From an uncultured Solirubrobacteraceae bacterium (GTDB lineage Bacteria; Actinomycetota; Thermoleophilia; Solirubrobacterales; Solirubrobacteraceae): a stretch of DNA of 64,000 nucleotides. The notes beneath the pieces were generated by a model, which saw nothing but the letters and a program-made list of their open reading frames with translations, did not search any database and was not told the DNA's origin. Positions within the stretch are counted from its first letter, which is position 1. Each line of letters starts with the position of its first letter. The stretch is taken from assembly GCA_963830345.1 (NCBI GenBank), contig CAWHLZ010000004.1:1362590-1426589 (forward strand), read 5' to 3'. Of the stretch, positions 5,876-61,517 are shown piece by piece. The position numbers and the translations under genes are program-made.

Positions 5876-6682
<807 letters not shown>

Positions 6683-6786
6683 CCACGGAGCTTAGCTTGA
6701 GAGTTAGCCGCGCAGGGCGTCCAACCCTGCGATCTTCATACTGCGTACGGCATCCCACCCGTACTTGACCGCTCGACATCGGCTTA

Positions 6787-21702: not shown

Positions 21703-21813
21703 GCGAGATGCTCGTGAGTCGAGCGAGACAAGGACCGAATCCCACCCGCCCGCGTGGCGTGCTTTGCACGCGAGCGACCGAGGACGCAGTATCGCGAAGC
21801 GCTCACGGTCATC

Positions 21814-21817
<4 letters not shown>
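21703..21817. repeat. 115-bp intergenic element with terminal inverted repeats (family copy E2), starting at the fusA stop codon
   Basis: gcgagatgctcgtgag (21703-21718) pairs with ctcacggtcatctcag (21802-21817). It shares the internal block with E1. The right TIR contains the fusA TGA (21814-21816). Confidence 0.6.
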
Positions 21818-23916
<2,099 letters not shown>

Positions 23917-37072: not shown

Positions 37073-37134
37073 AAGCGAAGCCGTCCGTCCGGCGGTCGCC
37101 GCGAAGTCGCGACCGCCGGGCGGACGGCGAAGCG
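37073..37134 (-). terminator. Long GC-rich hairpin right after the rplL stop; second copy of the secY-distal hairpin (attenuator/terminator-like, no U-tract)
   Basis: ccgtccgtccggcggtcgc (37081-37099) pairs with gcgaccgccgggcggacgg (37108-37126) with one mismatch. The flanking gcgaag.../...ggcgaagcgctacttca is shared with 7561-7630. Confidence 0.5.
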
Positions 37135-46111: not shown

Positions 46112-49100
46112 CAGCCCCTCCTCACGCTCGACACCGGGGTGGCCTGGGTCTTTTTGGCTTTAGGTTTGCTTTTGCCCTTCGGCTTGGCGCCATAGCGCTT
46201 CCTCGCGCGTGCTTCACAGACGATTCGCTTGTGCCGGGTTTTGAGTTTTCTGCAGGCCTTTAGCGCGGTTGCGAGCTTCTGCCTGCGGGTCAACGGTTTG
46301 GGTTTGGGTGTCGTGTGGGTTTTGGAGGGCAGCACACCCGTCGCGATGTTCCCGGGCCCGGAGAACGTCGCACTCGCAGCCGCCGACACCAACGACACGC
46401 CTTCACCCGAGGAGGGCCGGCAGCTACCCGTCGCTTCGCATTCCTGCAGCACCGAGCTGTTCGAGGACAGACACGGCGACGCGGTCGTGCAGACCCGTGC
46501 GTCGTAGATGTCGTAGGCGTTGTCGGTGTCCGCGGGCACGAGCTGCGCGGCGGTCAGGAAGAACACGTTATTCCCGTTTTCGCTGGCGTCCAGGAACGCT
46601 GATTCTTTACCCGAGGTGCCAGAGGAGATCAACCCGATACAGCCACTAGAAGAACCACAGCTCCCGACATTTTCGGGCTCGTACTCATACACGTCCTCCT
46701 TGCCGTTCTTATCGGTGGGGACAAGCGCATCCGGGCTGTCGAAGAACAGCCGGCCCGCATTGGAGAGATATCGTGGTTGGTACAACGCGGCCGGTGCACC
46801 ATAGAAAATGTTGAACGTCCATCCCGGGATCGACCCCGCTAGCCACCGGTTACGCCAGATTTCTGGGCGATCCACGAGCAACCCCAGCCCTTCGCCCGCT
46901 AGTTCGGTGTCGAACACCCCTTCGGGGTGTTTGAACCCGCCGTTTTCGCTGACGGGGTTACACGACGCGCATACCAGCCGTCCGGTCTGTGCGTCATACA
47001 AGAACACCTCCTCATCAGGCTCCCCACCGTTGGCGTTGTGGTTGTCATAGCCCGTGAGGCTCTCCTGGGACATGAACGCTAGATACTGGCCGTTAGGGGA
47101 GACGCTGGAGGTCACGGCCGCGATGTTCCCGTTCGAGGGCGGCAGGTTCGACGTCAACCCCGCGCCCCAGTCTGCTGCGTCTTCGTCAGAGAGCGCCGCG
47201 ATGAACCGCGTTTGGCGCACCCCGGGGTCTTGGGGGTCGGGTTCTGAGACATACAGGTTGCACGTCGCACCCGGTGGTGGGAGGGGTGCTTCGGCTTCGG
47301 GGTCACGCACGCATTCCCCCGGCGTAGCGCCCGCCGCGAGGACCCCATTCGCTACGAAATACACCCGCGAGCCGTCCTGCCCCGTGCCGGGGATCAGGTT
47401 TAGGACATCCCCGCTACCGGTGATCGGGTCTGGGGTTAGGTCGCTCAGCCGGCCCCGCAACGCTTCGCCCGCGCCGCTCGTGATTTCAAACTCGTATAGG
47501 TCGGCGGGGGCTTCTTCGCCGACGGGTTCCTGCCCTGATTCTTCGGTTAGCCGGGCGGTGTCGGTGAAGAACACCCTGGAGCCATCGCTGGAGGCGCTCT
47601 GGAAATGCACTTCCTGCTCGCCTTCGCCGGGTTCGGGGAGCACCCCACCGTGTTCGCCGGGTTCGGTTGACCCCTGCCCCTGCGCCGCATTGACCTGCAC
47701 CGTTTCCCCCGTACCGGTGTCCCGCAGATACAGCCGTTCGGGGACCTGATGCACTTCCTCACTCCAAAACACCCGGCTACCATCAACAGAGACCGCGTTG
47801 CGTGCGTTCAGATCCCCACCATCACCAAGCGCCGGCTGGGACTGCGACAGCGTTTCATCCAGTGCTGGCAACCCATCCGGCAGCACACTCACCAGCTGCA
47901 ACGGCTCCCCAGCTTCCCACTCATACAACCCCGCCGCCGAAGGCGCCGTCGCGGTCAAACCGACCTTCGATTCAAAAATCACATGCGACAGATCACTCGT
48001 CGCCCCCAAGAATTCCAGGGCACCGCCGAACCTGGTGCCCGCCGTATCATCCCCCGCCGTCACCAACGGCGTATATCCCGGGGCAGCGGGTGGGTCTTCG
48101 CTACGCACATACAACGTCTTTTCCGTAGCTTCAGGTGATAGCGGTGGGTCTTCTACGACCCCACCAACACCATACGCGGGTTCCGTCGGCGCGAGGAGAC
48201 TCTCCCCGAGTTCGGGAGAAAAATAGTGGTACTCCGAGGGAGCTGGCAGCAGCAGACCCCGCCCCCTGTCGTGTGGTGTTTCAAGACTCGTGGTTTCCCA
48301 GCCGTCTGGGCCGCGTCTGGAGATCAGCTGCGCCAATTCGAAGCTACGGTTCCCCAGCGGTTCGCTGACGACCGGCCCCGAGGCCGCCCACACCAGCCCA
48401 TCGCCACCCGCTGCGGCCTGGATACTCGCGCCCCTGGAGCGCGAGACCGTTTCGACCGCCGCGCCGTGCTTATCCGGCGGGGAAACCATTTCCCACGCAC
48501 GCCCATCCGGCAACACGCCGGCCGAGGGCAACGTCGTGAACGTGTCCACCGATGGCACCCCTTCAACGCTACCCGCCGCGTTGCTCGCCAGCACCCGGTA
48601 GAAATACGCAGTCGCCGGCGCAAGACCCGTCACTTCGACGCTGACGTCCTGGTCGCCGAAGCCCGCCGCGAGCTTCCCCACCCCCACATCCGTACATGAC
48701 GCCGGGTTGAGCGTGCAATCGACGGTGCCGTACTGGAAATAGTATTCCGTTTCCCCACCCCGCGGATCGATCTGCGCACTCAACCGCTCCGAGCTCGCAC
48801 TCACGCCCACCGCCGAGACCCCATCCACGACCGGCGCCGCCACCACCGATTCGGGGATGAACACCTCCACCATATCCGCGTCAAGCTCGGGGACAAACAC
48901 ATCCCCCGTCGCTGAATCCATTGCAACCCCAGCACCACCCGTCAACTGCCCCATACCGAACCGCTGGATCAACACACCCCCCGGCGTGAACGCCGCGACA
49001 CTACCCCCCTCATCCAAATACACCACACCCCGACCCGCCCTCCCCAGCGGCGTGCCTTCCCCACTCGCCTCATCAACCGCGACACCCGTCGTATTTTCGT

Positions 49101-50022
49101 GATCCAACTCGTCTGCCAGGACCCTGGGTTCCGGTGCCGTACCGTTCAGCTTCGCGACCAGCAACGGATCCGGGGTTTCGCCCTCCTGCCCTGGACATTC
49201 TTCGCTAGCACTCTCGTGTTCATAGCCAACATAGAAAGCTTCGTCTTCCGCAGCGACCGCGAACCCCGGCCTCGCCGCACACGAGAATTTCTCTTCGACT
49301 TCCGGGGTGCGACGCAACGCGGGCTCCCACACAAGCCGCACGCCTTCGCTTTTCGTCGACTGTTTACTAAACCCATCAATCACGCCTTCTTCATCCCAAT
49401 ACACCCACAACACCCCAGCCGCGTCCACCGCCACACCCGACACATCTTCAAATTCGAGTTCTTCTTCCTTGACCTTGAACCTTTTCCATTTATGAATCAC
49501 CGCCCCCACAGACGGGCTGTACTCATACACAACATCCCGTTCCCCCGGCCCAGCTTCCTTTTCTTCTGAGCCCACCACGTACACATCACCACGCGACGGA
49601 TCTGACGAGCTCACCGAGTTATCAACCGCGATCGCCCCCGGCGAATGCACACCAAACTCCGACACATATTCAAAACCCCCAGCCCCATCAGGCTTAAAGA
49701 TCTCGACCCGTTCCCCACCAGCATCCACCACATACACAACACCCGTCGCTTCATCAACCGCCACCCCCGAAGCACCCTCAAACTCCCCACCACCAACACC
49801 AACCCCACCAAACACAGACCCAAACACATGCCCCCGCACACCCAACCCCAACGCCGAACCACACCACAACACCAACACCCCCACCAACACACACACCACA
49901 ACACACAACACACGCCAACCACCACACACACGGTTCAAACCCGCGCGAGCCCCCACATGCTCAGAGGCCACCCTAACGCCGACGCTGTTGCTTTCACCCA
50001 TCACACACTCACATCCACTCAC
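46108..50022 (-). CDS. B1: about 1300-aa secreted protein (NHL-like repeats, FN3-like domain, PD40/TolB-like propeller repeats, basic two-Cys C-terminal tail)
   Basis: Long ORF with paralogue B2. The likely start is ATG 50001 (MGESNS). Hydrophobic N-terminal segment WRVLCVVVCVLVGVLVLWCGSALG. GVAVDEATGVVYVVDAGGERVEIF (NHL-like). ETEYYFQYGTVDC...VTGLAPATAYFYRVLASNAAGSVEG (FN3-like). DGSRVFWSEE / DGSRVFFTD / DGSRVYFVANG / NGQYLAFMS (PD40-like). Confidence 0.88.
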   Translation of the reverse strand: MSGCECVMGESNSVGVRVASEHVGARAGLNRVCGGWRVLCVVVCVLVGVLVLWCGSALGLGVRGHVFGSVFGGVGVGGGEFEGASGVAVDEATGVVYVVDAGGERVEIFKPDGAGGFEYVSEFGVHSPGAIAVDNSVSSSDPSRGDVYVVGSEEKEAGPGERDVVYEYSPSVGAVIHKWKRFKVKEEELEFEDVSGVAVDAAGVLWVYWDEEGVIDGFSKQSTKSEGVRLVWEPALRRTPEVEEKFSCAARPGFAVAAEDEAFYVGYEHESASEECPGQEGETPDPLLVAKLNGTAPEPRVLADELDHENTTGVAVDEASGEGTPLGRAGRGVVYLDEGGSVAAFTPGGVLIQRFGMGQLTGGAGVAMDSATGDVFVPELDADMVEVFIPESVVAAPVVDGVSAVGVSASSERLSAQIDPRGGETEYYFQYGTVDCTLNPASCTDVGVGKLAAGFGDQDVSVEVTGLAPATAYFYRVLASNAAGSVEGVPSVDTFTTLPSAGVLPDGRAWEMVSPPDKHGAAVETVSRSRGASIQAAAGGDGLVWAASGPVVSEPLGNRSFELAQLISRRGPDGWETTSLETPHDRGRGLLLPAPSEYHYFSPELGESLLAPTEPAYGVGGVVEDPPLSPEATEKTLYVRSEDPPAAPGYTPLVTAGDDTAGTRFGGALEFLGATSDLSHVIFESKVGLTATAPSAAGLYEWEAGEPLQLVSVLPDGLPALDETLSQSQPALGDGGDLNARNAVSVDGSRVFWSEEVHQVPERLYLRDTGTGETVQVNAAQGQGSTEPGEHGGVLPEPGEGEQEVHFQSASSDGSRVFFTDTARLTEESGQEPVGEEAPADLYEFEITSGAGEALRGRLSDLTPDPITGSGDVLNLIPGTGQDGSRVYFVANGVLAAGATPGECVRDPEAEAPLPPPGATCNLYVSEPDPQDPGVRQTRFIAALSDEDAADWGAGLTSNLPPSNGNIAAVTSSVSPNGQYLAFMSQESLTGYDNHNANGGEPDEEVFLYDAQTGRLVCASCNPVSENGGFKHPEGVFDTELAGEGLGLLVDRPEIWRNRWLAGSIPGWTFNIFYGAPAALYQPRYLSNAGRLFFDSPDALVPTDKNGKEDVYEYEPENVGSCGSSSGCIGLISSGTSGKESAFLDASENGNNVFFLTAAQLVPADTDNAYDIYDARVCTTASPCLSSNSSVLQECEATGSCRPSSGEGVSLVSAAASATFSGPGNIATGVLPSKTHTTPKPKPLTRRQKLATALKACRKLKTRHKRIVCEARARKRYGAKPKGKSKPKAKKTQATPVSSVRRGW

Positions 50023-50099
50023 TCACTAGCTTGCTTACCGCACACATGGTGTGTGGGACCACGCGGGCCCCACACACCACCACACAAACTCCAGCAGGA

Positions 50100-50876
50100 T
50101 CAAACGTACGCGTTCAACTCTAGCTTTTCTTCGCTTTTCACGGTAGAGGTGATGATCTGATCAGCCTGATCAAACCCTTTGCCAGCGAAGTCCGCTTCGA
50201 GGACATCCTTTACTTTTTTCCCGTTTTCTTCATAGTATTCAAGTCCCTGGAAACCATGTTTGCCCTTGTACTTCAGCGTAACCGTTTCGCTCATTTTATC
50301 CACAGGCACATTCACAAGGATCGAACCACGCACCGCCACCGTCAACGAAGCACCACACGTGAATTCAATGAACTTTTCCGCGCCGCCGCTCGGATACAGA
50401 TCCAACGCTGCCTTGTGTTCTTTTTCCTTTTCCCACACAACACGGCCTTCTAGCGGCACTGTTTCCAATTCGCCTTCTTTCAAGCCAACTGTCGTGCAGA
50501 TAAACGGCGTGACTTTGCATCCTTTGAACGTGACGCGCACGTTCGCTACTTCTTTCGTGCCGACATATTCCCCGGTGCTGGTCTCAGTTTCGCAGCCAAC
50601 CTGGTATTTACCGACTTCTTCTAGCACTGCTTTACCACCCGTACTCGTCTGGAATTTCTTCACCACGCCCGGATGCCATTCATATTTACCAGTTTTGGTT
50701 TCGCTTTTCGTCGTGCAACCCGAATTCGTGAATTCACCACTATAAACTTTGCCCACCTTAGGAGCCTTTTCGCACCTGCCATATTCCGGCGCCTGCGCCG
50801 ACGCACTCGCCACTCCGACTACGCCGACCACAAACGCGACGGCGAGGCACACGCCCAAAAATCTCAAACGTTTCAT
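50100..50876 (-). CDS. C1: 258-aa secreted, Lys/Glu/Thr-rich protein with six Cys; family unknown
   Basis: Signal peptide MKRLRFLGVCLAVAFVVGVVGVASASA|QA. Close paralogue C2. G+C is visibly lower than in the core genes. Confidence 0.85.
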   Translation of the reverse strand: MKRLRFLGVCLAVAFVVGVVGVASASAQAPEYGRCEKAPKVGKVYSGEFTNSGCTTKSETKTGKYEWHPGVVKKFQTSTGGKAVLEEVGKYQVGCETETSTGEYVGTKEVANVRVTFKGCKVTPFICTTVGLKEGELETVPLEGRVVWEKEKEHKAALDLYPSGGAEKFIEFTCGASLTVAVRGSILVNVPVDKMSETVTLKYKGKHGFQGLEYYEENGKKVKDVLEADFAGKGFDQADQIITSTVKSEEKLELNAYV

Positions 50877-51083
50877 CTCAACGCTATCCCTTCTACCCTC
50901 GATATAGATTAGCCATCAACCAACTCAACGCAACCAAACGTCGTGATGAGCCACGCGTCGCCAGCCACCAAGCCGGATGTCCTGCGATGACGGGACCCCG
51001 CGCTCAAACTCGAGACACGGGATCCCGCCGCAAACGACCCTAGGAACCTACCCTAGAGCCCAGCTCCAGCATTGAGTTCTAGA

Positions 51084-52001
51084 TCACACTTCTCCGTTTT
51101 CGAACTTTTCTCTAATGAAGTGAGCGTTGGCCGTATACAGATTGCCCTGTAGAATTGTAATTCCGTGCTGGCCGGGCAGTTCGAGTACTTTGTTGATCGC
51201 GGCATCGACATACGCTTCATCTTCGCCACTACCACACCCGTTTGCGTCGCTTCCTGCTTCGACGGGCCAGCCGAGATCAACTAGCCTGCTTTCGGCGAGC
51301 TCAATCGTCAAGAATTCGTAGCCCTCCGAGAATTTGCCTACCGCACCCGGGTCTTCCGACGTCAGATCCTGCCATACTGGGCTTGTTTCAGAGCCTATCT
51401 CACACGGTCCGCCACCCAGTTTTTCGACCCATGAGTTTATCATTCTGACCTTTAGCGGCAACTTGAATGCAGTACCTTTTCCTTCGATGATGTTTTCGGT
51501 GTTGAGTGCACCAGGCGTTTCACTGATCAGATTGCCACCCGCCAGTTCAATTTTGACGTTCAGGCTGGTTTCTTTGTTCTTCTTGGCTTCCTTGAAGCTC
51601 TGCTTCAAAGATTCCGGCCAACCCGCTTCTTCCTGATCCCGAGTGGTGATCAAACCCAATCCACCTTGAACCTTTAGTTCAGGAGCTTCCAGCGTCTGGT
51701 AGCCGTTGGCCGCCCCGATGACCGTCAATTCCCCTTCTGTACCTATAAACCCGCCCTGAAGGACGATCGGCTTGTTGAGCTTCACCACCACGTTACCTAG
51801 CTGGAAAAAGCCGCCCTTGCTGCCACCGGCGGTCACTCCGGCGAAGCAGTCGTTGATCTCTGTGTTGCTAACTGGACAGCCTTTGTATTGGGTGAGGCTT
51901 TCAACTGTATATCCGCTCTTCGCCAGCGCCGGCATCGCGGCCACTGCGCTCACCGCGAAAGCGGCAACCAGACAGAGGCCCAGTATCCTTACATGTCTCA
52001 C
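51084..52001 (-). CDS. D1: 305-aa secreted protein with four Cys; family unknown
   Basis: Signal peptide MRHVRILGLCLVAAFAVSAVAAMPALA|KS. GTG start with AAGGAG 11 nt upstream. Diverged paralogue D2. Low G+C. Confidence 0.85.
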   Translation of the reverse strand: MRHVRILGLCLVAAFAVSAVAAMPALAKSGYTVESLTQYKGCPVSNTEINDCFAGVTAGGSKGGFFQLGNVVVKLNKPIVLQGGFIGTEGELTVIGAANGYQTLEAPELKVQGGLGLITTRDQEEAGWPESLKQSFKEAKKNKETSLNVKIELAGGNLISETPGALNTENIIEGKGTAFKLPLKVRMINSWVEKLGGGPCEIGSETSPVWQDLTSEDPGAVGKFSEGYEFLTIELAESRLVDLGWPVEAGSDANGCGSGEDEAYVDAAINKVLELPGQHGITILQGNLYTANAHFIREKFENGEV

Positions 52002-52170
52002 GTCTCCATCACTCCTTTATCTTCTTTAGTAATAATCGATCGACGCCCGAGCTCTCCTCCTAGAGACGCCCCGACATCGCCCGTTTTCAACAGCGCGCCC
52101 CGCCGAGACCAACGGCCTCCGCACGAATGCGCACTCGTCGTCGGTGTGGACACCGACGGACGCTTGTAAG

Positions 52171-52209
52171 TGGCTGACTTGCCCGTCGCCTGGCTGACTT
52201 GCCCGTCGC
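52171..52209. repeat. Perfect 19-bp direct repeat x2 with a 1-nt spacer, in the R1-D1 intergenic region
   Basis: tggctgacttgcccgtcgc at 52171-52189 and again at 52191-52209. Confidence 0.85.
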
Positions 52210-52286
52210 GCGCGGCCCGCTGCCGTACCCGCCAGCAGCGCTGCGCTTCGCCAGCTCTGTACGCCGATCGGCCAGCTTGCAGCTCA

Positions 52287-53162
52287 TCACGCGGCCTGCC
52301 TGACCCTCGCGCGGGCTGGCCGCTCAGGCACCACAGCGCCACCGGAATCGAGCAACTCGAGTACACGCTGCCCGCACTGCGTCAACAGCCAAGCATTCTC
52401 TCGCCGCGAGCCATTGCGAGGCGTAACCTTCTCGATCAAACCCCGCCGCGCGAGCCGACGCAGCAAATGCGACGTCTGACCCTCATCCGCAAGACCCGCC
52501 GCCTCAGCCACCTCACGATTACTCAAACGCGGCGCACAAGCAATCACACGCAACACCAGCGCCGCACGATAAGTAAACGGCACCGGAGCAACAACCTCAC
52601 ACCCACCAGACCCCACAGACACCCGCCCTGCAGCCACAGAACTCCCCGCCGGCTGCACACTCGCGGCGGCCTGCCCCAGATATGGCACCACGATAAACGA
52701 CATCAACGACGGCGCCAACTCCACCAACGACCCACCACCCTGCTCGAGCATCCGCGCACGAATCACAGAAAACACACCACCGACAACCAGCTCACCAACC
52801 AGCGTCGTAGACAGCGCCAGATCCCCACCCACAATTCCCCTACCACGCCTACCCTGCCCATCATTCAACAGCTCACCCAGCACCCCCTGCACACGCTCCA
52901 CACACCCACGCGCCGCCATCTCCGCCTCGAACGCCTCGACAACCAGCAGACGACCCCACCGCGGCTCGTCCTCAAGAAACCCAAGCAACGCCACCAACCC
53001 CGCACGCGTACGACCCAACCAGTACTCCTCACGCCCAACCGCCTCCAACACCACCGCACAAAGCCGCCCCAACCCCTCCTCAAACGCCGCCAAGAAGCAA
53101 GCCTCGACACTCTCAAAGACCTCATAAAACACAGCCTCCGACACACCCGCAACAGCGACCAC
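52287..53162 (-). CDS. R1: regulator with a TetR-type ligand-binding region plus a C-terminal winged-helix HTH; it lacks HTH helix 1 and a promoter in the present DNA orientation
   Basis: It opens VVAVAGVSEAVFYEVFESVEACFLAAFEEG, i.e. inside the TetR HTH. Only 15 sense codons separate the GTG from an upstream in-frame TGA. The C-terminus is YRAALVLRVIACAPRLSNREVAEAAGLADEGQTSHLLRRLARRGLIEKV...ENAWLLTQCGQRVLELL (MarR/ArsR-like wHTH). Confidence 0.7.
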   Translation of the reverse strand: MVAVAGVSEAVFYEVFESVEACFLAAFEEGLGRLCAVVLEAVGREEYWLGRTRAGLVALLGFLEDEPRWGRLLVVEAFEAEMAARGCVERVQGVLGELLNDGQGRRGRGIVGGDLALSTTLVGELVVGGVFSVIRARMLEQGGGSLVELAPSLMSFIVVPYLGQAAASVQPAGSSVAAGRVSVGSGGCEVVAPVPFTYRAALVLRVIACAPRLSNREVAEAAGLADEGQTSHLLRRLARRGLIEKVTPRNGSRRENAWLLTQCGQRVLELLDSGGAVVPERPARARVRQAA

Positions 53163-53165
53163 CGA

Positions 53166-53195
53166 CTCGGCTAGACGGGGGTCACTGCCGTGTGC
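53166..53195. repeat. Left arm of a 30-bp inverted repeat (IRL)
   Basis: ctcggctagacgggggtcactgccgtgtgc. Its reverse complement matches 53526-53555 at 28/30 positions. It encodes AHGSDPRLAE on the minus strand. Confidence 0.85.
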
Positions 53196-53283
53196 GCCGT
53201 GCGACCATCAGACCTCGGGGGGTGTCCACGCGCCGTGACTATGGGCTTGGACGTTGGATCTCACGCTTGCGCCGACGGATGTC

Positions 53284-53312
53284 TTGACAAATTTGTCTGG
53301 GTATGTTCTCAT
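53284..53312 (+). promoter_or_regulatory. Sigma-70-like promoter inside the IR-bracketed segment
   Basis: TTGACA (53284-53289), a 17-nt spacer, then TCTCAT (53307-53312), with TG at -15/-14. It sits in an A/T-rich patch in an otherwise GC-rich region, about 45 nt upstream of the ATG at 53358. Confidence 0.35.
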
Positions 53313-53357
53313 TCTCCCCACATGCGGACCTGCGGATGCAGGCGAGGGGAAGGGACG

Positions 53358-53582
53358 ATGGAGGGAAGCAGAGCGGGCATCATGGACGGCAAGACCCAGA
53401 TCAGGTGGACCCTCGGGTCCTCCCACGACACCCAGCGCTCACGCCCAAGACGCGCAACCACGGGCGCTAGCGAGCAAACCGAGTCCCTCCGCGCCAAGCT
53501 CATCGCCGCGACCGTCGAGGTCCTCGCCCACGGCAGTAACCCCCGTCTAGCCGAGACGGCGCACACACGCATAGCCCCGTAG
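53358..53582 (+). other. Detached 5' coding segment of a TetR-type regulator (HTH helix 1), on the opposite strand from R1
   Basis: ATG preceded by GGGGAAGGGA. It reads MEGSRAGIMDGKTQ...SEQTESLRAKLIAATVEVLAHGSNPRLAE, then runs out of the IR into TAHTRIAP*. Helix 1 is of TetR type (RxKIxxAAxxLxAxxG). Confidence 0.6.
53526..53555. repeat. Right arm of the 30-bp inverted repeat (IRR)
   Basis: gcccacggcagtaacccccgtctagccgag; it encodes AHGSNPRLAE on the plus strand. Confidence 0.85.
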
Positions 53583-53979
53583 CTGCTGGGCTTGCCGCGG
53601 TCTCCCCGCGATCTTCCCGCAGCATGCCCTCTTCCTGCGGTACGCCGGCTAGCTACATCGACGATTCGATAGCGTAACGGCGTATCCAGCCTACCTGACG
53701 GCTGCCTACCCGACGGCGATCATCTTCGTCGTTCTTCGTGATGGCGATCGTCTTCGCCGAAGGGAACTCGGCGGTGTCCTTCAGCTCGATGGCGTGCGGC
53801 CCATTCACGGCGGCGGCAACCCCTTGGTGGGACTGCCGATGCACAGCGGGCGAGCCAGCTGGCTCTGCTCGAATCGAGTGGCTCGACGAACTGGCCCAGC
53901 AGTTGGGCGCCGCTAGCCTCCTTCAGCCCGTCAGTCGCGACCTGCCCGCCAATCGTGACCGCTCGCAGGCGTTGGGTTT

Positions 53980-56900
53980 CTATTGCCTGTCCTTGGCCTT
54001 GGTGGTTGTGTGGGCTGGTTTTTTGACGGGGTGTTTTTTGTGGGCTTGGTGTTCGCAGATGAGGCGCTTGTGCTTGTTCTTGTCTTTGCGGCAGGCTTTG
54101 AGGGCTTTAGCGAGGCGTTGTGTGTTGGTGAGCCTGGTGCTGGCGTGGATATGGCAGCCGGTGATAGCGACGTTCGTGGTCTGCTGGAGCATGTCGCCGT
54201 TTTGGGCGGTGATGCTAACCGGGAGCTGAAGACTAGTCTTGCAGAGACTGAAGTCTTCTTTTTCCGAGACATTCGGGGTAAACACAGAATCCGGGCCGGC
54301 CGGGAGTTCCGTTTCAAAACTCGTGAATGATGCGTCAGGCACCGATTCCAGATGCGAGTAAGTGATCCCGTTCTTGATGTTCGTCTTAGCATCCACGACG
54401 ATCGTGATCCCTTCACCCTGCAACACAAACTCCAGATCCGGGAATTCCGCACCACCATGAGAAACGAGATACGCCGGGCCGATCAGCGGGCTCTCCAAGA
54501 CCGGAGTATGCACAATCGCATGACCAATCACCGAGGCCGCGTCACACGAGGCAGGGTTCGCGTTGAATGCCCGTTCGGTGCACGCCTTCTGCAGCGTACT
54601 GAGCCGCGAGGACAGGGCTTTGGGGATCTGGATCGCGAGCTTCGCGATATTCGCCTGCCCGATCCCCGCCGAGGTGACCTTGATATTCAAGTTCGTACCA
54701 TTGGCTTTACTGCCCTGCCCCACCGCCGAGGCCGTCAACTTCGGCGCAAACGGCAGGCTCTGGCAGTTGGTGACCTGAAACGGCGAGGACACCGGGATAC
54801 TGGCGCCCTGACCGCCGGTGAGGGTGCCGGTGATACTCATCGGACTGCAGCTGGTGGGGTTGAACGTGAACTGCGGCCGATCGACCAGCACATCGATCTG
54901 TTTGAGCTGGGCCGGGACACCCTTCACGAACATGGGGAACGGATCGCTTTCGATCGTGACCGCAGCCGTCGCGGGGTTCACGTTGATCCTCGAACGGACA
55001 TCCACATCACCGAGGTCAAACGGTCCCGCGACCGCGGGGGTGACCACCAACAGCCCAAACGGCGCACCGTCATACCCCACCGTCAGGTAGGCCTCACCGG
55101 GTAGCGTCACAGGTTCTCCACCCAGCCCGGCGGTCGCGGTGGACTGCCCAACCAGGCTTTCCGGGCCACACGCCCACTCCCCGCCAGCGGGGGGTTCCGG
55201 ACACGGCGTCAAACCCGCCAGAACCGCCGCCACACCATCAGGCAGATGCAATGCCAGGGACTTCAGGGGCTGTTGGCCATCAGGCCGGTTGATCGTCAAC
55301 GTAAACGACGTGAACCCCCCGGCCTGCAGACTCGTAGAACCCGCCAGGAAAGACGGCGCGAACACCAACGGGCTGGGTGGACAGGGCCCGCCACCCACAC
55401 CGGTGGCAATCTGGAACGGCGGTTCGCTTGTCGGGTTGCTGGTGGTGTTGGTCCAGGCCGTGAATGAGCTTGTCGTGGTGTAGCTCCCACACGCTGGGGG
55501 GGTACTCAGCGCCCCGCGGGGGCCACCAAAGAACTGCAGCCGCAGTTCTTCGAAAGGGACCTGCGGCGTATCCAGAAAACTCGTCGTGAGCTGGCCTGTC
55601 TGTTCATCCAGGCGCCCTTCACCGGCGAGCTTGACACGCACACCCAAACGCGAACTTTCCGCCACGACATACATCGCCACCAGCGAGTTGAACGGGTTCG
55701 CCCCCGGTTCCCCATTCGGGGCAGGGGCCGCGAGATACACCCAGCCCTGCAGTTCTTCCCCCAACAAGGGGGTCTTGATCCGCACACTGCCGAGCTTCGA
55801 CGCTTCCGGACACGCTGCTTTTTCGGTTGAGAACCGCAGGGGCTCACTAGCGCCTGGCGCTAGGGGATCCACGCCGGGGTTGCCGAGATACCCGATCTGT
55901 GCCTGGGAGCAGGCCTGCAGCCCGTTCGCGGCAGACGGGTTCAACAACAGCCCTTCGGGTAGCGTCACCGTCGTGCTGCGAACGTCTGCGTCTCCCAACG
56001 CGCCTTCGCTGAGGGTGCCCTGCTGAGCGACGCGCACAACAACACCAAGACCCGTCGGGGTACTCGCCTCCTCCACCCGTTCCCCCGCATGCCCTGCTTC
56101 AGAGGGCTGTTCGGATGGCTGTTCGGGCGCCACCGTCAACGACGGGGCGAACGGCAGCACCCCACAGCCTTCCAAGGCTTCCAGTGGCCCACCGGCCTGG
56201 TTTTCAAGCGTGAACTGGCTCTGCAGTTGATCCCCGGTCCACGAATCCCCTTCCATACTCGTGCTCAACTGGCCGGTGCAGGCGGTCGGGAGCGTCAAAA
56301 ACGGGATCCCGGAGCGGTCTTTGAGGGTTTCGCAGGTTTCCCCCGGGTTCCGTTCGATACCTTCTCGCAGACACGCCCAGCCACGTGAGGCGTCATGACT
56401 CTGGCTATCAGGCTGCCCCCAGAACGTGATCTGCGCCGCGAGGATCTGCGCCGCCGCGGTCGTGTTGCTCGTGCTGACCGTCACGCCATAGTCCCCGCCG
56501 GAGCGCACAGCGGTATCGAGGATCACCGGGACGGCGTCTGCGACGAACCCGAAGCTCGCGGGCTCACCCTGCGCCGGTTCCAGGTTGAACACCGGCACAG
56601 CGAGCGTGATATGCCCCGCCCTACTCGGTTCCAACAAACTCACGACCGCAACCCCAACCGCCGAGCCCCCAGGGCAGAGGTTCCCGACGTCGAACGCGGA
56701 GAAGTCCGAGGCCGAGCACTCTTCGGTGGCCTGCACGTTCCCCAGCAGGCCCGGCGGGAGGCTGAAACTCAGGTCCTTCGTCAACGCCGGGGCAGCCGGC
56801 TCAAGCTCGACAGGTTCTCCGGGCTCCTGGACTTCTTCGAGGATCTCGTTGAAATCAACCGTACTCGTCAACTGAAACGGATGCGAACCCGCCTGCCCAT

Positions 56901-57558: not shown

Positions 57559-60500
57559 CCGCTCCTCCTCACGCTGGATACCGGGGTGGCCTGGGTCTTC
57601 TTGGCTTTAGGCTTGCTCTTACCCTTCGCCTTGGCTCCATAGCGCCTTCGGGCCTGTCTTTCACAGACAGCGCGCTTGTGCCGGGTTTTGAGTTTCCGGC
57701 AGGCCTTCAGCGCTTTCGCGAGCTTCTGCTTGCGGGTCAACGGTTTCGGTTTGGGTGCCGTGAGGGTTTTGGAGGGCAGCACACCCGTCGCGATGTTCCC
57801 CGGCCCGGAGAACGTCGCGCTCGCCGCCGCCGCCACCAGCGACGACGTGCCTGAAGCAGACCGGCAGCTACCAGTCGTTTCGCATTCCTGCACAGAGGAG
57901 CCGTTCGACGCCAAACACGGAGAGGCTACGGTACAGACCCGCGCGTCATAAATATCGTAGGCGTTGTCGGTGTCTTGAGCGACGAGCTGTGCGGCGGTGA
58001 GGAAGAACACGTCATCCCCGTTTTCGCTGGCATCCAGGAACGCCGATTCCTTACCCGAAGTCCCCGAAGAAATCAACCCAATACAACCACTAGAAAAACC
58101 ACAACTACCCACACCTTCGGGCTCATACTCATACACATCCTCCTTGCCATTCCTATCCGTGGAGACGAGCGCATCGGAGCTGTCGAAGAACAGCCGGCCC
58201 GTGTCTGAGAGGTACCGTGGTTGGTAGAGCGCGGCGGGGGCACCGTAGAAGATGTTGAACGTCCACCCAGGGATCGATGCTGCTAGCCACCGGTTCCGCC
58301 AGACTTCCGGGCGATCCACGAGCAACCCCAGCCCTTCACCCGCTAGTTCGGTATCGAACACCCCTTCCGGGCGTTTGAAACCACCGTTTTCGCTGGCCGG
58401 GTTACACGACGCACATATGAGCCGGCCGGTCTGCGCGTCATACAAAAACACCTCCTCATCAGGCTCCCCACCGGTGGCGTTGTGGTTGTCATAGCCGGTG
58501 AGGCTCTCCTGGGACATGAACGCTAGATACCGACCGTTCGCAGAGACGCTGGAGGTCACAGCCGCAGTGTTCCCTTGCGAGGGCGGCAGGTTCGACGTCA
58601 ACCCTGCACCCCAGTCTGCTGCGTCTTCGTCAGAGAGCGCCGCGACAAACCGCGTCTGACGTACCCCCGGGTCTTGGGGGTCGGGTTCTGAGACATACAG
58701 GCTGCACATCGCACCCGCCGGGGGGAGGGGTGCTTCGGCTTCAGGGTCACGCACGCATTCCCCCGGCGTAGCACCCGCCGCGAGGACCCCATTCGCGACG
58801 AAATACACCCGCGAGCCATCCTCCCCCGTCCCGGGGATCAGGTTCAGGACATCCCCGCTACCCGTGATCGGGTCCGGAGTTAGATCGCTCAGCCGGCCAC
58901 GCAACGGTTCACCCGCACCACTAACGATTTCAAACTCATACAGGTCAGCCGGGGCTTCTTCGCCGACGGGTTCCTGCCCGGAGTCTTCGGCCAGCCGTGC
59001 GGTGTCCGTGAAGAACACCCTGGAGCCATCGCTGGAAGCGCTCTGGAAATGCACTTCCTGCTCGCCTTCGCCGGGTTCCGGGAGCACCCCACCCCCTTCA
59101 CCGGGTTCGGTGGATCCCTGCCCCTGCGCCGCGTTGACCTGCACCGTTTCCCCCGTACCGGTATCCCGCAGGTACAGGCGTTCGGGGACCTGGTGCACTT
59201 CCTCGCTCCAGAACACCCGGCCACCATCACTGGAGATCGCGTCGCGGGTGTTCAGACCACCACCATCCCCCAACACCGGCTGAAACTGCGACTCTGTTTC
59301 ATCCGCTGCCGGCAACCCATCGGGGAGGACACTCACCAGCTGCAACGGCTCCCCTGCTTCCCACTCATACAGCCCCGCCGCCGAAGGCGCCGCCGCCGTC
59401 AGCCCGACCTTTGATTCGAAGATCACATGCGAGAGATCACTCGTTGCCCCCAGGAATTCAAGGGCACCACCGAACTCCGTGCCCGCCGTATCATCCCCCG
59501 TGGTCACCAACGGCAGATAGTCCGGGGCGGCGGGTGGGTCTTCGCTACGCACATACAACGTCTTTTCGCTAGCTTCAGGCGACAGCGGCGGGTCTTCGAC
59601 GACCCCACCAACACCATACGCCGGTTCCGTCGGTGCGACCAGGCTCTCCCCCAGTTCCGGGGAAAAATAGTGGTACTCGGAGGGGGCTGGTAGCAGCAGA
59701 CCCCGTCCTTTGTCGTGGGGTGTTTCAAGACTCGTGGTTTCCCAGCCCTCTGGGCCGCGTCTTGAGATCAGCTGCGCTAGTTCGAAGCTACGGTTCCCCA
59801 ACGGTTCGCTGACGACCGGCCCGGAGGCTGCCCATACCAGCCCATCGCCACCGGCTGCGGCCTGGATACTCGCACCCCTGGAGCGCGAGATCGTTTCGAC
59901 CGCCGCACCGTGCTTATCCGGCGGGGAGACCATTTCCCACGCACGCCCATCCGGCAACACACCAGCCGACGGCAACGTCGTAAACGTATCCACCGACGGG
60001 ACACCTTCAACGCTACCCGCCGCGTTGCTTGCCAGCACCTGGTAGAAATACGCGCTCGCCGGCCGAAGACCCGTGACTTCGACGCTGACGTCCTGGTCAC
60101 CGAAGCCCGCCGCGAGCTTCCCCACCGGCAAATCCGCACACGACGCCGGGCTGACCGTACAATCCACGGTGCCGTACTGGAAATAGTATTCCGTTTCCCC
60201 ACCACGCGGATCGATCTGCGCACTCAACCGCTCCACGCTCGCGCTCACCCCCACCGCCGAGACCCCATCCACGACCGGCGCCGCGACCACGGATTCCGGG
60301 ATGAACACCTCCACCATATCAGCCCCCAACTCCGGGACGAATACATCACCCGTCGCCGAGTCCACCGCTACACCCGCACCATCCGTCAACTGTCCAGCCC
60401 CGAACTGTTGGATCAACGCACCCGACGGCGTGAATGCCGCGACACTACTGCCCTCATCCAGATACACCACACCCCGACCCGCGTTCCCAAGCGGCGTGCC

Positions 60501-61517
60501 TTCCCCACTCGCCTCATCAACGGCGACACCCATTGTGTTGTCGTGATCCAACTCACCTGTCAGCACCCTGGGTTCCGGTGCCGCACCGTTCAGCTTCGCG
60601 ACCAGCAACGGATCCGCGGGTTCGCCCTGTTGTCCTGGGCATTCTTCGTTAGCGCTCTCGTGTTCATAGCCGACATAGAAAGCTTCGTCTTCGGCGGCTA
60701 CCGCGAACCCCGGCCGCGCCGCGCACGTGAATTTCTCTTCGATTTCTGGGGTGCGACGTAGCGCGGGCTCCCATACTAGCCGTACGCCTTCGCTTTTCGT
60801 TGACTGTTTACCGAACGCGTCGATTACGCCTTCTTCATCCCAATACACCCACAACACGCCAGCCGCGTCCACCGCGACACCCGAAACATCTTCAAATTCG
60901 AGTTCTTCTTCCTTGACCTTGAACTTCTTCCATTTATGAATCACCGCCCCCACAGACGGACTGTACTCATACACCACATCCCGTTCATCGGCCGCCGTTT
61001 CCTTTTCTTCCGAACCCACCACATACACATCACCACGCGACGGATCCGAGGAACTCAAAGAGTTATCGACCGCTATCGCCCCCGGCGAACGCACCCCAAA
61101 CTCCGACACATATTCAAAACCCCCAGCCCCATCAGGCCTAAACACCTCGACCCGTTCCCCACCAGTATCTACCACATACACAACACCCGTCGCTTCGTCA
61201 ACCGCTACCCCCGAAGCACCCTCAAACTCCCCACCACCAACACCCACCCCACCAAACGAAGACCCAAACACATGCCCCCGCACACTCAACCCCAACGCCG
61301 AACCACACCACAACACCAACACACCCACCAACACACCCACCACAACCAACAACACACGCCATACACCCGCACAACCCGAGCCCAAACGCGACCCCGCAAG
61401 CCCGAAAGCCACCCTACCGCCAATGCTGACGCCGTTGCTGTCGCCCATCACACACTCACACCCACTCACTTGCTTGCTTACCAGACATGTGGCGTGCAGG
61501 ACCAGCCAGTCCCACAC
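57555..61517 (-). CDS. B2: about 1300-aa paralogue of B1
   Basis: Collinear with B1 and highly similar throughout. The likely start is ATG 61448 (MGDSNG), homologous to the B1 start. Confidence 0.88.
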   Translation of the reverse strand: MWDWLVLHATCLVSKQVSGCECVMGDSNGVSIGGRVAFGLAGSRLGSGCAGVWRVLLVVVGVLVGVLVLWCGSALGLSVRGHVFGSSFGGVGVGGGEFEGASGVAVDEATGVVYVVDTGGERVEVFRPDGAGGFEYVSEFGVRSPGAIAVDNSLSSSDPSRGDVYVVGSEEKETAADERDVVYEYSPSVGAVIHKWKKFKVKEEELEFEDVSGVAVDAAGVLWVYWDEEGVIDAFGKQSTKSEGVRLVWEPALRRTPEIEEKFTCAARPGFAVAAEDEAFYVGYEHESANEECPGQQGEPADPLLVAKLNGAAPEPRVLTGELDHDNTMGVAVDEASGEGTPLGNAGRGVVYLDEGSSVAAFTPSGALIQQFGAGQLTDGAGVAVDSATGDVFVPELGADMVEVFIPESVVAAPVVDGVSAVGVSASVERLSAQIDPRGGETEYYFQYGTVDCTVSPASCADLPVGKLAAGFGDQDVSVEVTGLRPASAYFYQVLASNAAGSVEGVPSVDTFTTLPSAGVLPDGRAWEMVSPPDKHGAAVETISRSRGASIQAAAGGDGLVWAASGPVVSEPLGNRSFELAQLISRRGPEGWETTSLETPHDKGRGLLLPAPSEYHYFSPELGESLVAPTEPAYGVGGVVEDPPLSPEASEKTLYVRSEDPPAAPDYLPLVTTGDDTAGTEFGGALEFLGATSDLSHVIFESKVGLTAAAPSAAGLYEWEAGEPLQLVSVLPDGLPAADETESQFQPVLGDGGGLNTRDAISSDGGRVFWSEEVHQVPERLYLRDTGTGETVQVNAAQGQGSTEPGEGGGVLPEPGEGEQEVHFQSASSDGSRVFFTDTARLAEDSGQEPVGEEAPADLYEFEIVSGAGEPLRGRLSDLTPDPITGSGDVLNLIPGTGEDGSRVYFVANGVLAAGATPGECVRDPEAEAPLPPAGAMCSLYVSEPDPQDPGVRQTRFVAALSDEDAADWGAGLTSNLPPSQGNTAAVTSSVSANGRYLAFMSQESLTGYDNHNATGGEPDEEVFLYDAQTGRLICASCNPASENGGFKRPEGVFDTELAGEGLGLLVDRPEVWRNRWLAASIPGWTFNIFYGAPAALYQPRYLSDTGRLFFDSSDALVSTDRNGKEDVYEYEPEGVGSCGFSSGCIGLISSGTSGKESAFLDASENGDDVFFLTAAQLVAQDTDNAYDIYDARVCTVASPCLASNGSSVQECETTGSCRSASGTSSLVAAAASATFSGPGNIATGVLPSKTLTAPKPKPLTRKQKLAKALKACRKLKTRHKRAVCERQARRRYGAKAKGKSKPKAKKTQATPVSSVRRSG

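Follow-up and report, generated by a model that had tools for sequence, protein, structure and literature searches.

A probable programmed DNA inversion that splits a TetR-type regulator gene inside its helix-turn-helix in an uncultured Solirubrobacteraceae bacterium

RESULTS

A regulator gene without its first helix and a stub that encodes it

The DNA analyzed here (the window) is a stretch of 64,000 nucleotides from an uncultured Solirubrobacteraceae bacterium, of which positions 1 to 42 kb resemble the ribosomal-protein, rpoBC, and tuf region. In the present orientation, the body of the regulator gene R1 lies on the minus strand (52287 to 53162; 291 amino acids [aa]) and encodes a TetR-type protein from helices 2 and 3 of the helix-turn-helix onward, followed by a TetR-like core domain and a C-terminal winged helix of the MarR/IclR type. 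The start called for R1 is a GTG at 53162, with an in-frame TGA 15 codons upstream, as reported in the earlier note made from the sequence alone, and R1 possesses neither helix 1 nor a ribosome-binding site or promoter of its own. Compared against Pfam, R1 as assembled matched only winged-helix families (HTH_IclR at its cutoff and MarR_2 just below), with no match to TetR_N. Downstream of R1, also on the minus strand, lies the presumed target cluster D1-C1-B1-A1 (42512 to 52001), which consists of D1 (51084 to 52001), C1 (50100 to 50876), B1 (46108 to 50022), and A1 (42512 to 46111). All four genes encode large proteins with signal-peptide-like N termini; Pfam and NCBIfam gave nothing on their function beyond an NHL-repeat region in B1. 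A 19-nt tandem repeat at 52171 to 52209 is a candidate target for binding by R.

On the plus strand, an open reading frame (ORF) of 74 aa (53358 to 53582) extends from an ATG at 53358 to a TAG at 53580 to 53582, in agreement with the initial description. The encoded stub comprises an N-terminal tail, helix 1 (LRAKLIAATVEVLAHGS), and an NPRL contributed by the recombination site described below, and the frame stops 10 codons past that site. A second in-frame ATG, at 53382, is an alternative start that matches, by position, the start called in a homologous locus (L081) found naturally in the joined, or ON, state.

The inverted repeat and the segment that it bounds

A repeat search identified two 35-nt arms, at 53162 to 53196 and 53525 to 53559, that are complementary at 32 of 35 positions (91%), with 328 nt between them. 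The 30-nt repeat first noticed, with 28 complementary positions, is real and forms the core of this longer repeat. Sequence reading and translation bore out the accompanying claim that both arms encode AHGS(D/N)PRLAE: the minus strand of the left arm reads HGSDPRLAES, and the plus strand of the right arm reads AHGSNPRLAET. A repeat of such quality in inverted orientation is unique in the window, where the two other inverted repeats of at least 28 nt are 79 to 80% complementary and have arms 9 to 18 kb apart; by our own estimate, for 64 kb and 500-nt offsets, the chance expectation is about 1e-7. A staggered 11-nt pair (53190 to 53200 and 53556 to 53566), earlier proposed as a second set of repeats, was judged to be a chance match (there are 22 inverted pairs in 3 kb) and did not recur when it was sought in the other homologous loci.

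Measured from half-site to half-site, the invertible segment is 376 bp long (53173 to 53548), with the same layout in 75 loci. The segment carries a conserved promoter-like block as well as the ribosome-binding site, the start codon, and the first ∼60 codons, TetR helix 1 included. The latter three are expression elements whose effect depends on orientation, and the inverted repeats that bound the segment serve as predicted recombination sites, as in an inverton. Inversion yields, in frame, ...RAKLIAATVEVLAHGS(D/N)PRLAESVVAVAGVSEAVFYEVFES... within a protein of 358 aa. The predicted in-frame reconstruction of R1 could thus be reproduced in silico, with a complete TetR-type fold and the C-terminal winged helix. 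Strand skew, considered as a means of dating the orientation, is not uniform across the segment and supports no conclusion. A search of positions 52000 to 54100 for known RNA elements returned none.

The promoter-like block (53284 to 53312, plus strand) contains TTGACA (53284 to 53289), TATGTT (53302 to 53307), and TCTCAT (53307 to 53312) and, in the assembled orientation, is directed away from R1. The motif TTGAC[AG] is present in all 75 segments. In 52 loci belonging to the better-conserved group, TTGACAAA-N12-TATGTTCTC is conserved at the same place, preceded by an A/T-rich TATTTTTCAGG, and the block in the window possesses matching TTGACAAA and TATGTTCTC. The proposed promoter-like site TTGACA-17-TCTCAT is weaker than first stated, in that a sigma-70 consensus scan did not call it because its second hexamer lacks an A at position 2. 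The conservation at this place suggests that 53284 to 53312 may function as a promoter.

The joined product has a complete TetR fold

Only the joined form combines the two features that define TetR/AcrR regulators, the N-terminal helix-turn-helix (PF00440) and the all-helical core. Joined R1 aligns with TetR_N over its full length (1 to 47 of 47), at a score of 15.6 bits that lies below the 24-bit cutoff, and 13 of 66 joined N termini match TetR_N individually. When the joined N termini of the 66 loci were compared with a bona fide TetR protein, the alignment was gap-free across the junction (hhalign probability of 99.1%; E = 6e-19). In the AlphaFold model of a natural ON protein, P0086, helix 1 spans residues 25 to 49 (pLDDT of ∼95) and packs as it does in whole TetR regulators, with target-normalized TM scores of 0.74 to 0.77 in Foldseek comparisons with FadR and FasR. 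A profile search with the in-silico joined N termini retrieved genuine TetR proteins; the natural joined proteins were not recovered, owing to the word prefilter.

Helix 1 is retained as coding sequence in the split state. A homologous stub is present on the opposite strand in ∼76 of 80 loci, and the dN/dS ratio is 0.60 for the helix 1/stub region, compared with 1.13 for the neighboring flank read in the same frame as a control; by this measure, helix 1 appears to be under purifying selection. The core of the site is read in the same frame (DPRL) by the stub and by R in all 75 parsed loci, 71 of which have at least 60 open codons upstream. In 125 of the classified R-family homologs, the gene call leaves 4 residues ahead of the AGVS helix, the same truncation point as in R1. 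A natural start of the homologs at VVAVAGVS, which had been raised as a possible refutation, holds for gene-caller output only: the upstream DNA always carries the inverted helix-1 segment. By our reading, neither a Shine-Dalgarno-like sequence nor a promoter-like block lies upstream of the R body in the split state.

Two 27-bp dyads form the predicted recombination sites

The earlier note had treated the 30-bp repeat as the functional unit. Although the repeat is real, the site is a 27-bp dyad that extends past it on the outer side. Each site has an 11-5-11 structure: a conserved half-site, GACCCCCGTCT, a 5-nt spacer, and a degenerate, imperfect reverse-complement half-site. The proximal site, P (53157 to 53183, minus strand), reads GACCCCCGTCT-AGCCG-AGTCGGTGGTC on the R1 strand. 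Its left half (53173 to 53183) lies inside the invertible segment, and its right half (53157 to 53167) is in the fixed R1 body, overlapping the called GTG at 53162; the spacer occupies 53168 to 53172. The distal site, D (53538 to 53564, plus strand), reads AACCCCCGTCT-AGCCG-AGACGGCGCAC, with its left half (53538 to 53548) inside the segment, its right half (53554 to 53564) in the fixed flank, and a spacer (53549 to 53553) identical to that of P. The half-sites in the window differ at position 1 (G versus A), a position that is variable in other loci as well.

The dyads are conserved at both ends of the segment in 75 loci. At site P, the mean dyad match is 7.7 of 11 with a 5-nt spacer, compared with ∼3.3 at the other spacings between 2 and 9; at site D, it is 7.4 of 11, at the 5-nt spacing only. 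In one locus, L093, the core of the distal site is perfect on both strands, forming an 11-5-11 palindrome. The half-sites are conserved even in the noncoding outer flanks and at positions without coding constraint. The variable stretch consists of the 5 nt between the 11-nt arms; an alternative reading is 10-7-10, with TNNNNNA as the overlap. Tyrosine recombinases do not typically use a 5-nt spacer; the discrepancy would disappear if the 7-nt TNNNNNA were the overlap. Minimal efficient homology for RecA-dependent recombination in Escherichia coli is ∼23 to 27 bp; the stretch that is identical between the arms is only 17 nt in most loci, so the arms are mostly too short for RecA.

The split is conserved across loci, and each locus has its own spacer

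The same bracket, in the same split orientation, was found in 78 of 80 homologous loci from 7 Solirubrobacterales metagenome-assembled genomes, as well as in 14 to 17 further metagenome contigs. L108 and L109, which are most closely related to R1, have it too. Many contigs share the identical arrangement, with lengths of up to 4.08 Mb and one record titled as a chromosome. More distant relatives are unsplit, with genes that are contiguous through helix 1 and that possess neither the DPRL motif nor the repeat bracket, which indicates that the split form is derived.

Conservation of the 11-nt core extends to all loci. In 73 of 75 loci, both arms carry the same hexamer directly after the core, whereas the hexamers match in 0.36% of the comparisons between loci. 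Within each genome, nearly every spacer is distinct (17 of 17, 17 of 17, 17 of 17, and 15 of 16). Such a spacer, identical between partner sites and otherwise free to vary, is what would be expected of a tyrosine-recombinase core site. A private spacer at each locus would keep recombination within that locus. The switch in the window appears to be one of a family of at least 17 to 19 per Solirubrobacterales genome.

The joined arrangement also exists in nature. L081, on a 31-kb contig, is the exact inversion product (segment 5816 to 6173): the outer flank, a site, the promoter block, the ATG, helix 1, and a second site are followed by R in frame, both sites being intact with the spacer AATCA at each. 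L082, on a short contig of 1242 nt, likewise encodes a joined gene; ∼95 other homologous loci are split. The joined form accounts for 2 of the ∼230 R-family proteins retrieved and for 0 of the 75 parsed loci. Given that ON is very rare, flips could be infrequent events that belong to evolutionary rather than physiological time. Metagenome contigs were also scanned with an ON-junction pattern (GSCRGYNACCCCCGTCTN8CNGTG) that would match L081. There were no joined forms among 25 stretches, 14 of which fit split loci by their inner flank; the pattern also matched unrelated genes, for example, a penicillin-binding-protein-like gene. When the two joined proteins were compared by BLAST with every retrieved homolog, no locus appeared in both orientations, and a full database search for a near-identical split twin of P0086 found none, the closest protein being 77% identical.

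Candidate recombinases

As had been stated, the window contains no recombinase gene: its ORFs gave no match to four reference recombinases, and, for positions 1 to 42 kb, the Pfam check covered ten ORFs. The 376-bp segment likewise contains no recombinase, and a phmmer search with Hin as the query gave no match in any locus. A Hin/Gin-type serine invertase system does not fit this organization, in which the sites are 11-5-11 rather than 12-2-12 and no invertase is adjacent to or inside the segment. The dyad-symmetric arms resemble the binding arms of a tyrosine-recombinase core site. Given dyad sites whose short central spacer needs to match between partners, the driver is most likely a tyrosine recombinase encoded elsewhere.

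One nearby candidate recurs, a Phage_integrase-family protein encoded 0.7 to 1.1 kb upstream of the switch in L083 and L103. In L078, a protein of this family is encoded 4.4 kb upstream of the switch, and a tRNA-His gene lies 1.7 kb downstream of the integrase gene. The candidate is an ordinary-looking integrase, linked to the switch by adjacency only. An extra core-like match near the L078 candidate falls inside an unrelated coding sequence, and the integrase-like ORFs near L037 and L076, which adjoin tRNA genes, were discounted as integrases of the ordinary kind.

DISCUSSION

Proposed mechanism and alternative explanations

The locus probably contains a programmed inversion switch by which a TetR-type regulator gene is interrupted within its helix-turn-helix; the recurrence of the arrangement at nearly every related locus points to a flip switch rather than an accident. 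In the proposed mechanism, a recombinase encoded elsewhere would exchange strands within the spacer. In the OFF state, as assembled, the segment would face away from R1, so that only the 74-aa stub would be made and the R1 body would be left without promoter, start codon, and helix 1. In the ON state, helix 1 would be joined through the site-encoded loop G-S-D-P-R-L to helices 2 and 3, producing a 350- to 358-aa regulator with a TetR fold and a C-terminal winged helix, and the promoter would read toward R1 and D1-C1-B1-A1. Gene order suggests that the switch controls D-C-B-A. OFF would be the resting state, and the OFF bias may be a property of the mechanism.

The initial claim that a segment with the regulatory region, start codon, and helix 1 rebuilds R1 upon inversion is upheld by the bracket in 78 of 80 loci, the covarying hexamers, L081, and the continuous TetR fold. 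A conserved invertible switch at this locus and its relatives is therefore well supported by comparative sequence evidence, from which switching at this particular locus can be predicted. Taken together, the conserved split brackets, the covariation of the arms, and the natural joined loci exclude the alternative initially offered, inactivation of R1 by a fixed inversion, in the form of a one-off event. A broader version, in which an ancient inversion became fixed in the ancestor of the subfamily and spread by gene-cluster duplication, with no flipping and with R bodies that decay or work without helix 1, could account for the same split orientation in all 75 parsed loci and in nearly all of the retrieved proteins; in keeping with it, the search of the window gave no recombinase, and no single locus turned up in both states. 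It is nevertheless unlikely. If the arms did not recombine, their hexamers should not match within 73 of 75 loci and yet differ from one locus to the next, and helix 1 and the stub frame should decay, whereas the dN/dS ratio of 0.60 (versus 1.13), the DPRL frame kept in 75 of 75 loci, and the at least 60 upstream open codons in 71 of them indicate retention. The half-sites are likewise conserved in noncoding outer flanks and at positions free of coding constraint, and L081 and L082 are joined, the former with both sites intact.

The dyads could instead be operators flanking a control region shared by two independent divergent genes, the stub and a functional regulator that lacks helix 1. The 27-bp dyads do flank a conserved promoter-like block, the split is the usual state, and operators of TetR- and MarR-family regulators are typically palindromes of about this size. 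Divergent genes would, however, leave unexplained why inversion produces a gap-free TetR helix-turn-helix in every locus and why a natural joined form has its flanks swapped exactly at the sites. The spacer, usually the part least contacted by a dimeric binder, nonetheless matches within loci and not between them, and the R body in the split state lacks an upstream Shine-Dalgarno-like sequence or promoter-like block; we know of no TetR helix-turn-helix that functions in the absence of helix 1. We thus consider divergent genes to be very unlikely. Occasional RecA-dependent recombination between the repeats, or misassembly, could in turn generate the opposite orientation without a dedicated switch, given that the 35-nt repeat in the window is long enough for rare homologous exchange and that L082 is a short contig. 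Against this stand the 17-nt identical stretch of most loci, the conserved dyad architecture, which includes half-sites outside the repeat, the identical arrangement in many contigs of up to 4.08 Mb, one titled as a chromosome, and the 31-kb length of the L081 contig; an origin through RecA or misassembly is extremely improbable.

A battery of switches and its significance

The programmed inversion switch can be extended to the whole genome: at least 17 to 19 independent switches, served by one recombinase and insulated by private spacers, would each gate the regulator of a secreted-protein cluster. The chances that all parts of this joint reading hold appear evenly balanced. The single recombinase would serve all switches through the shared 11-nt half-site. 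At each locus, the gated gene would encode a regulator combining TetR and winged-helix domains and would stand first in an 11-kb cluster for large secreted proteins. Of many alternative surface or secreted assemblies, a cell could thereby produce one or a few and keep the others silent. Deletion by recombination between the sites of tandem clusters would be prevented.

If the segments flip, this would be the largest multilocus inversion system known to us in the Actinomycetota, and it would extend phase variation to soil bacteria that are almost entirely uncultured; we know of no account of surface variation in these soil Solirubrobacterales. The mode of gating would be new, with the DNA for the loop connecting helices 1 and 2 doubling as a recombination site, so that the DNA-binding domain is dismantled and rebuilt as the promoter moves with the first helix. 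The private spacers lead to a direct prediction of the number of sites of a single type that a genome can tolerate before it becomes scrambled, and they would amount to a natural set of mutually orthogonal sites, all usable by one recombinase. In the output of gene callers, these regulators consistently appear as MarR- or AcrR-like proteins with a truncated N terminus, and the split is overlooked.

Comparison with known inversion systems

No published description of this switch was found. Promoter inversions by tyrosine recombinases occur in uropathogenic E. coli (PMC6083910), and the capsular-polysaccharide loci of Bacteroides carry invertible promoters (PMC10403206, PMC10939037). As in Bacteroides, many invertible elements per genome would each precede their own surface-related locus, with the recombinase encoded elsewhere. 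In contrast, the Bacteroides elements are promoter-only, intergenic, and driven by a serine invertase (Mpi), whereas the system described here has a private spacer at each locus and belongs to soil Actinomycetota; we know of no locus-specific spacer in the Bacteroides system. The fimS element of E. coli is a promoter segment of ∼300 to 400 bp with short inverted repeats, is inverted by the tyrosine recombinases FimB and FimE, and can show an OFF bias. The switch proposed here shares this segment size, the promoter, the short repeats, the possible OFF bias, and, if the inference is right, the recombinase type. It differs in that its repeats are inside coding sequence and that the start codon and the first ∼60 codons ride on the segment, so that inversion would break and rebuild a protein domain. 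Furthermore, the gated gene encodes a transcription factor, whereas fimS gates a structural operon, and there are many paralogous switches per genome without a recombinase gene beside the switch.

Other precedents come from mycoplasmas. The mpl family of Mycoplasma penetrans consists of many paralogous genes, each with its own small invertible promoter element, and in the vsa system of Mycoplasma pulmonis, the sites are in the 5' coding region, so that recombination links the 5' end being expressed to alternative gene bodies. The present loci resemble mpl in being paralogous genes with small invertible promoters and vsa in having sites in the 5' coding region. The mycoplasma systems belong to another phylum, use a different recombinase, and vary surface lipoproteins directly, whereas here a regulator would be gated; private spacers, as far as we know, are not a described feature of either.

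Inverted repeats in coding sequence, with an orientation that alters the encoded protein, are also shared with gene-altering programmed inversions (Milman et al. 2023, PMC9881135) and with intragenic invertons (Chanin et al., PMC10028968). According to the abstract of the former study, the outcomes are alternative alleles of one gene, in contrast to the whole regulator versus a stub and a headless body proposed here, with the promoter on the segment. The same study lists TetR/AcrR regulators as depleted among its predicted programmed inversions (PMC9881135), and Solirubrobacter goes unmentioned both there and in the DeepInverton survey (PMC11602134). Finally, engineered orthogonal lox variants have the same binding arms and differ in their spacers, and only those with matching spacers recombine (PMC10850332, PMC11260471). 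Identical arms, differing spacers, and recombination limited to matching spacers would be common to both systems; the lox variants are man-made, whereas here the same logic, as read from sequence, would operate naturally across at least 17 loci per genome.

An inverted repeat divides a TetR-type regulator gene

A repeat search located a 35-nt inverted repeat (arms 53162-53196 and 53525-53559, 32/35 complementary, 328 nt between them) and found no second one of comparable quality across the 64-kb window. The earlier note, made from the sequence alone, had described it as a 30-bp candidate ON/OFF switch of R1, the minus-strand gene of a TetR-type regulator (52287-53162), and its reading of the coding layout was borne out by sequence reading and translation. 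R1 starts at GTG 53162, 15 codons past an in-frame TGA; both arms encode AHGS(D/N)PRLAE; and the plus-strand open reading frame (ORF) from ATG 53358, which has an additional in-frame ATG at 53382, passes through ...LRAKLIAATVEVLAHGSNPRLAE and stops at 53580-53582. As the note had also proposed, inversion restores the R1 frame: flipping the bracketed DNA in silico gives a 358-aa in-frame protein. In Pfam, R1 as assembled matches winged-helix families only (HTH_IclR at its cut-off and MarR_2 just below), and the joined R1 gains a TetR_N match that is full length (1-47/47) but weak (15.6 bits).

The gene cluster and its surroundings

R1 heads one of two tandem copies of an 11.44-kb minus-strand cluster with the gene order R-D-C-B-A that occupies the window from 42.5 kb onward; the 5' end of R2, the counterpart of R1, falls outside the window. 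The A and B proteins are 1200-1300 aa each with signal-peptide-like N termini, and B contains an NHL-repeat region; family searches matched C and D to no family. A1, B1, A2 and B2 each have an 81-nt repeat at the 3' end (42564-42644, 46202-46282, 54041-54121 and 57649-57729; 62-75% identity to the reference copy), which encodes a basic, Cys-rich C-terminal tail. The shared repeat makes the A and B proteins relatives in their C termini at least. The only conserved feature of the R-D spacer is a ribosome-binding region. The R1-D1 intergenic region also contains a perfect 19-nt tandem direct repeat, TGGCTGACTTGCCCGTCGC (52171-52209, copy starts 20 nt apart), which could be a binding site of the regulator.

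Third codon positions in R1 (C 0.09, G 0.58, T 0.31) depart from those of rpoB, rpoC and tuf (C ~0.50, G ~0.40, T ~0.05). In B1 and B2, the first 600 nt (49400-50022 and 60900-61517) are shifted as in R1, and the helix-1 ORF on the opposite strand (53358-53582) has normal usage (C 0.55, T 0.04). This looks like heavy coding-strand C-to-T change in the promoter-proximal part of each cluster. Coding-strand GC skew is far stronger at this locus (0.56) than in homologous loci of other genomes (mean 0.14).

The first 42 kb have the look of a region of ribosomal-protein, rpoBC and tuf genes; SurE, L5, S3, EF-Tu, RpoC, NusG and SecE were among ten ORFs checked there. Two repeats were observed in this region. 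One is a 43-nt perfect-hairpin element, GTCCGTCTGGCGGTCGCCGCGAAGTCGCGGCCGCCAGACGGAC, among the ribosomal-protein genes, with two copies 91% alike and 29.5 kb apart (7571-7613 and 37083-37125). The other is a 53-nt direct repeat, 91% identical, in the ribosomal-protein/elongation-factor region (18216-18268 and 21768-21820, 3.5 kb apart), whose second copy overlaps the 3' end of a 700-aa ORF (21814-23916) and lies ~190 nt upstream of tuf.

The split arrangement is the rule

R homologues from metagenome assemblies of Solirubrobacterales numbered in the hundreds in a protein search, and most are called with a start at 'VVARAGVS', the same position as in R1. For 80 loci fetched from seven metagenome-assembled genomes, out of 195 detected (at least 17-19 per genome), tblastn placed the helix-1 peptide upstream of R by 280-450 nt and on the other strand in ~76, and 78 have the inverted-repeat bracket, the exceptions being one locus without the region and one at a contig end. 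The same split build is present in the closest R1 relatives fetched (L108 and L109) and in 14 further metagenome contigs. The split arrangement is the rule, not an accident.

In the CAWFAC genome (L001-L017), the invertible segments are longer by ~100 nt and have, next to the proximal site, the palindrome ACTTGAC-N8-GTCAAGT and further CCTTGAC and GGTCTAGAC repeats (e.g., in L016, about -110 to -85 from R), all absent from the window copy, that may be accessory or operator sites.

Paired sites with locus-specific spacers

An 11-nt core, GACCCCCGTCT, is common to the two arms and conserved at every locus, with position 1 variable. The hexamer that follows is the same in both arms in 73/75 loci, though it varies from locus to locus and is shared in 0.36% of between-locus arm comparisons; past core and hexamer, the arms diverge. 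The outer flanks match the core imperfectly in reverse complement when the spacing is 5 nt (7.7 and 7.4 matches of 11, against ~3.3 at all other spacings), and the distal site of one locus, L093, has a perfect core on both strands. Because this match occurs at exactly 5 nt, each segment end is a 27-bp dyad (11-5-11); a 10-7-10 reading, with TNNNNNA as the overlap, fits equally well. In each dyad the inner half-site is well conserved and forms a terminal inverted repeat of the segment, and the outer one, in the fixed flank, is degenerate. In the window, the proximal site P (53157-53183) and the distal site D (53538-53564) have the same spacer, AGCCG.

Within a genome, the spacers differ from one another (17/17, 17/17, 17/17 and 15/16), so that recombination would be kept within the locus, without deletions between tandem clusters. 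The sites resemble tyrosine-recombinase core sites, in which binding arms enclose a short overlap whose sequence has to agree in the two partners; recombination at lox sites depends on spacer identity (PMC11260471, PMC10850332).

The distal outer flank is conserved noncoding DNA (e.g., L019-L078, +15 to +45 from the core; window 53565-53582), reading GTCGCGGGCCC..CCGTAATCCCGCATCAG in most genomes and CGCATAGCCSCATAGATA in the group formed by CAWFAC and the window. It supplies the stop codon of the helix-1 ORF within ~10 codons in the loci read by eye (10 in the window). Since the ON state would bring this flank immediately upstream of the promoter block, it may have a role in directionality or regulation.

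Naturally inverted loci

On the 31-kb contig L081, the order is conserved outer-flank motif, distal site, A/T-rich element and TTGACAAA block, followed by ATG and helix 1, the proximal site, and R in frame, with the spacer AATCA at both sites. L081 is the exact inversion product of the usual arrangement, with both sites intact. A 300-aa R protein matches the L081 product, P0086, over 82% of its length, as expected for a split call; the longest contig of its gene (30984 nt) equals that of P0086 and is possibly the same contig. L082 also encodes a joined gene (P0005). These two are the only joined forms among ~230 family proteins retrieved, and a pattern scan found no ON junctions in metagenome contigs; OFF is therefore the overwhelmingly dominant assembled state.

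Inversion rebuilds a TetR domain

The core is read in the same frame by the helix-1 ORF and R, as D-P-R-L, in all 75 parsed loci, and in 71 of them the frame stays open for 60 codons or more ahead of the junction. A profile of 66 joined N termini aligned with a genuine TetR/AcrR protein with no gap across the junction (99.1%, E = 6e-19); individually, 13 of the 66 matched Pfam TetR_N. In the AlphaFold model of P0086 (mean pLDDT 80.5), residues 25-49 form helix 1, residues 50-56 the site-encoded loop GGDPRLI, and residues 57-74 helices 2 and 3; a helical core comes next, then a C-terminal winged helix. Foldseek matched this model to whole TetR regulators, e.g., FadR and FasR (target-normalized TM 0.74-0.77). 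By profile and model, the joined protein is predicted to be a genuine TetR fold. Helix 1 appears to be under purifying selection: its dN/dS is 0.60, that of the R body 0.31, and that of the adjacent flank, in the frame of the helix-1 ORF, 1.13. These values are purely descriptive, since the compared pairs are not independent.

An exhaustive HMMER search with P0086 returned 4933 relatives. The close ones (≥45% identity) are truncated calls, and the best 150 include ~100 that, at 35-43% identity, run uninterrupted through helix 1. For example, P0302 reads ...IQRARMLAAMVEVVAERGAANVTVARVVARSGVSRRTFYELF... without the DPRL motif; its locus, with Pfam TetR_N and MarR_2 on record, adjoins NHL-repeat genes and has no repeat bracket. 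Judging from these relatives, the split form is evidently derived. Other distant relatives, P0279 (816 aa), P0281 (682 aa) and P0293 (563 aa), are single-chain fusions of two TetR-like modules and as many as four winged-helix modules.

Proposed mechanism and alternatives

The locus is very probably a conserved invertible switch. The enzyme driving this programmed inversion would be encoded elsewhere and is most likely a tyrosine recombinase. In the OFF state, as assembled, a 74-aa stub would be made and the R1 body would be without promoter, start codon and helix 1; in the ON state, a complete TetR-winged-helix regulator would be made and the promoter would face R1 and the D1-A1 cluster. A conserved block does lie where the earlier note had placed the promoter, and from it a promoter within the segment is predicted; a sigma-70 scan made no call. 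Matched spacers, arms alike at 32/35 positions and an intact joined ORF suggest that the window copy probably still flips.

That the arrangement is an ancient inversion, since fixed, is unlikely. Two independent genes with operator dyads would be a very improbable reading, and homologous recombination or misassembly a scarcely credible one. Each of the three fails on the covariation of the arms, the exact ON product or the reconstituted fold. The split arrangement itself is a real feature.

Phage_integrase-family tyrosine recombinase genes were observed near some R switches: 0.7-1.1 kb upstream in two unrelated metagenome contigs, L083 (reverse strand, 253-1425) and L103 (reverse strand, 5998-7191), and 4.4 kb upstream in the metagenome-assembled genome locus L078 (9-1241). 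The copies are 62-78% identical to one another. A tRNA-His gene lies 1.7 kb downstream of the integrase in L078, and the core-like sequence GACCCCCGCCT directly follows the integrase gene in L103. Their connection with the switch is one of adjacency only.

Comparison with known inversion systems

Full-text literature searches found no published description of this switch, and neither PMC9881135 nor the DeepInverton survey (PMC11602134) mentions Solirubrobacter. TetR/AcrR regulators are depleted among predicted programmed inversions (PMC9881135). In its way of working, the switch resembles fimS, the promoter invertons of Bacteroides, and "gene-altering" or intragenic inversions (PMC9881135, PMC10028968). 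Unlike in these systems, the site lies inside a helix-turn-helix, the promoter and first helix move as one, the gated gene is itself a regulator, there are dozens of paralogous copies, each with a spacer of its own, and the hosts are soil Actinomycetota.
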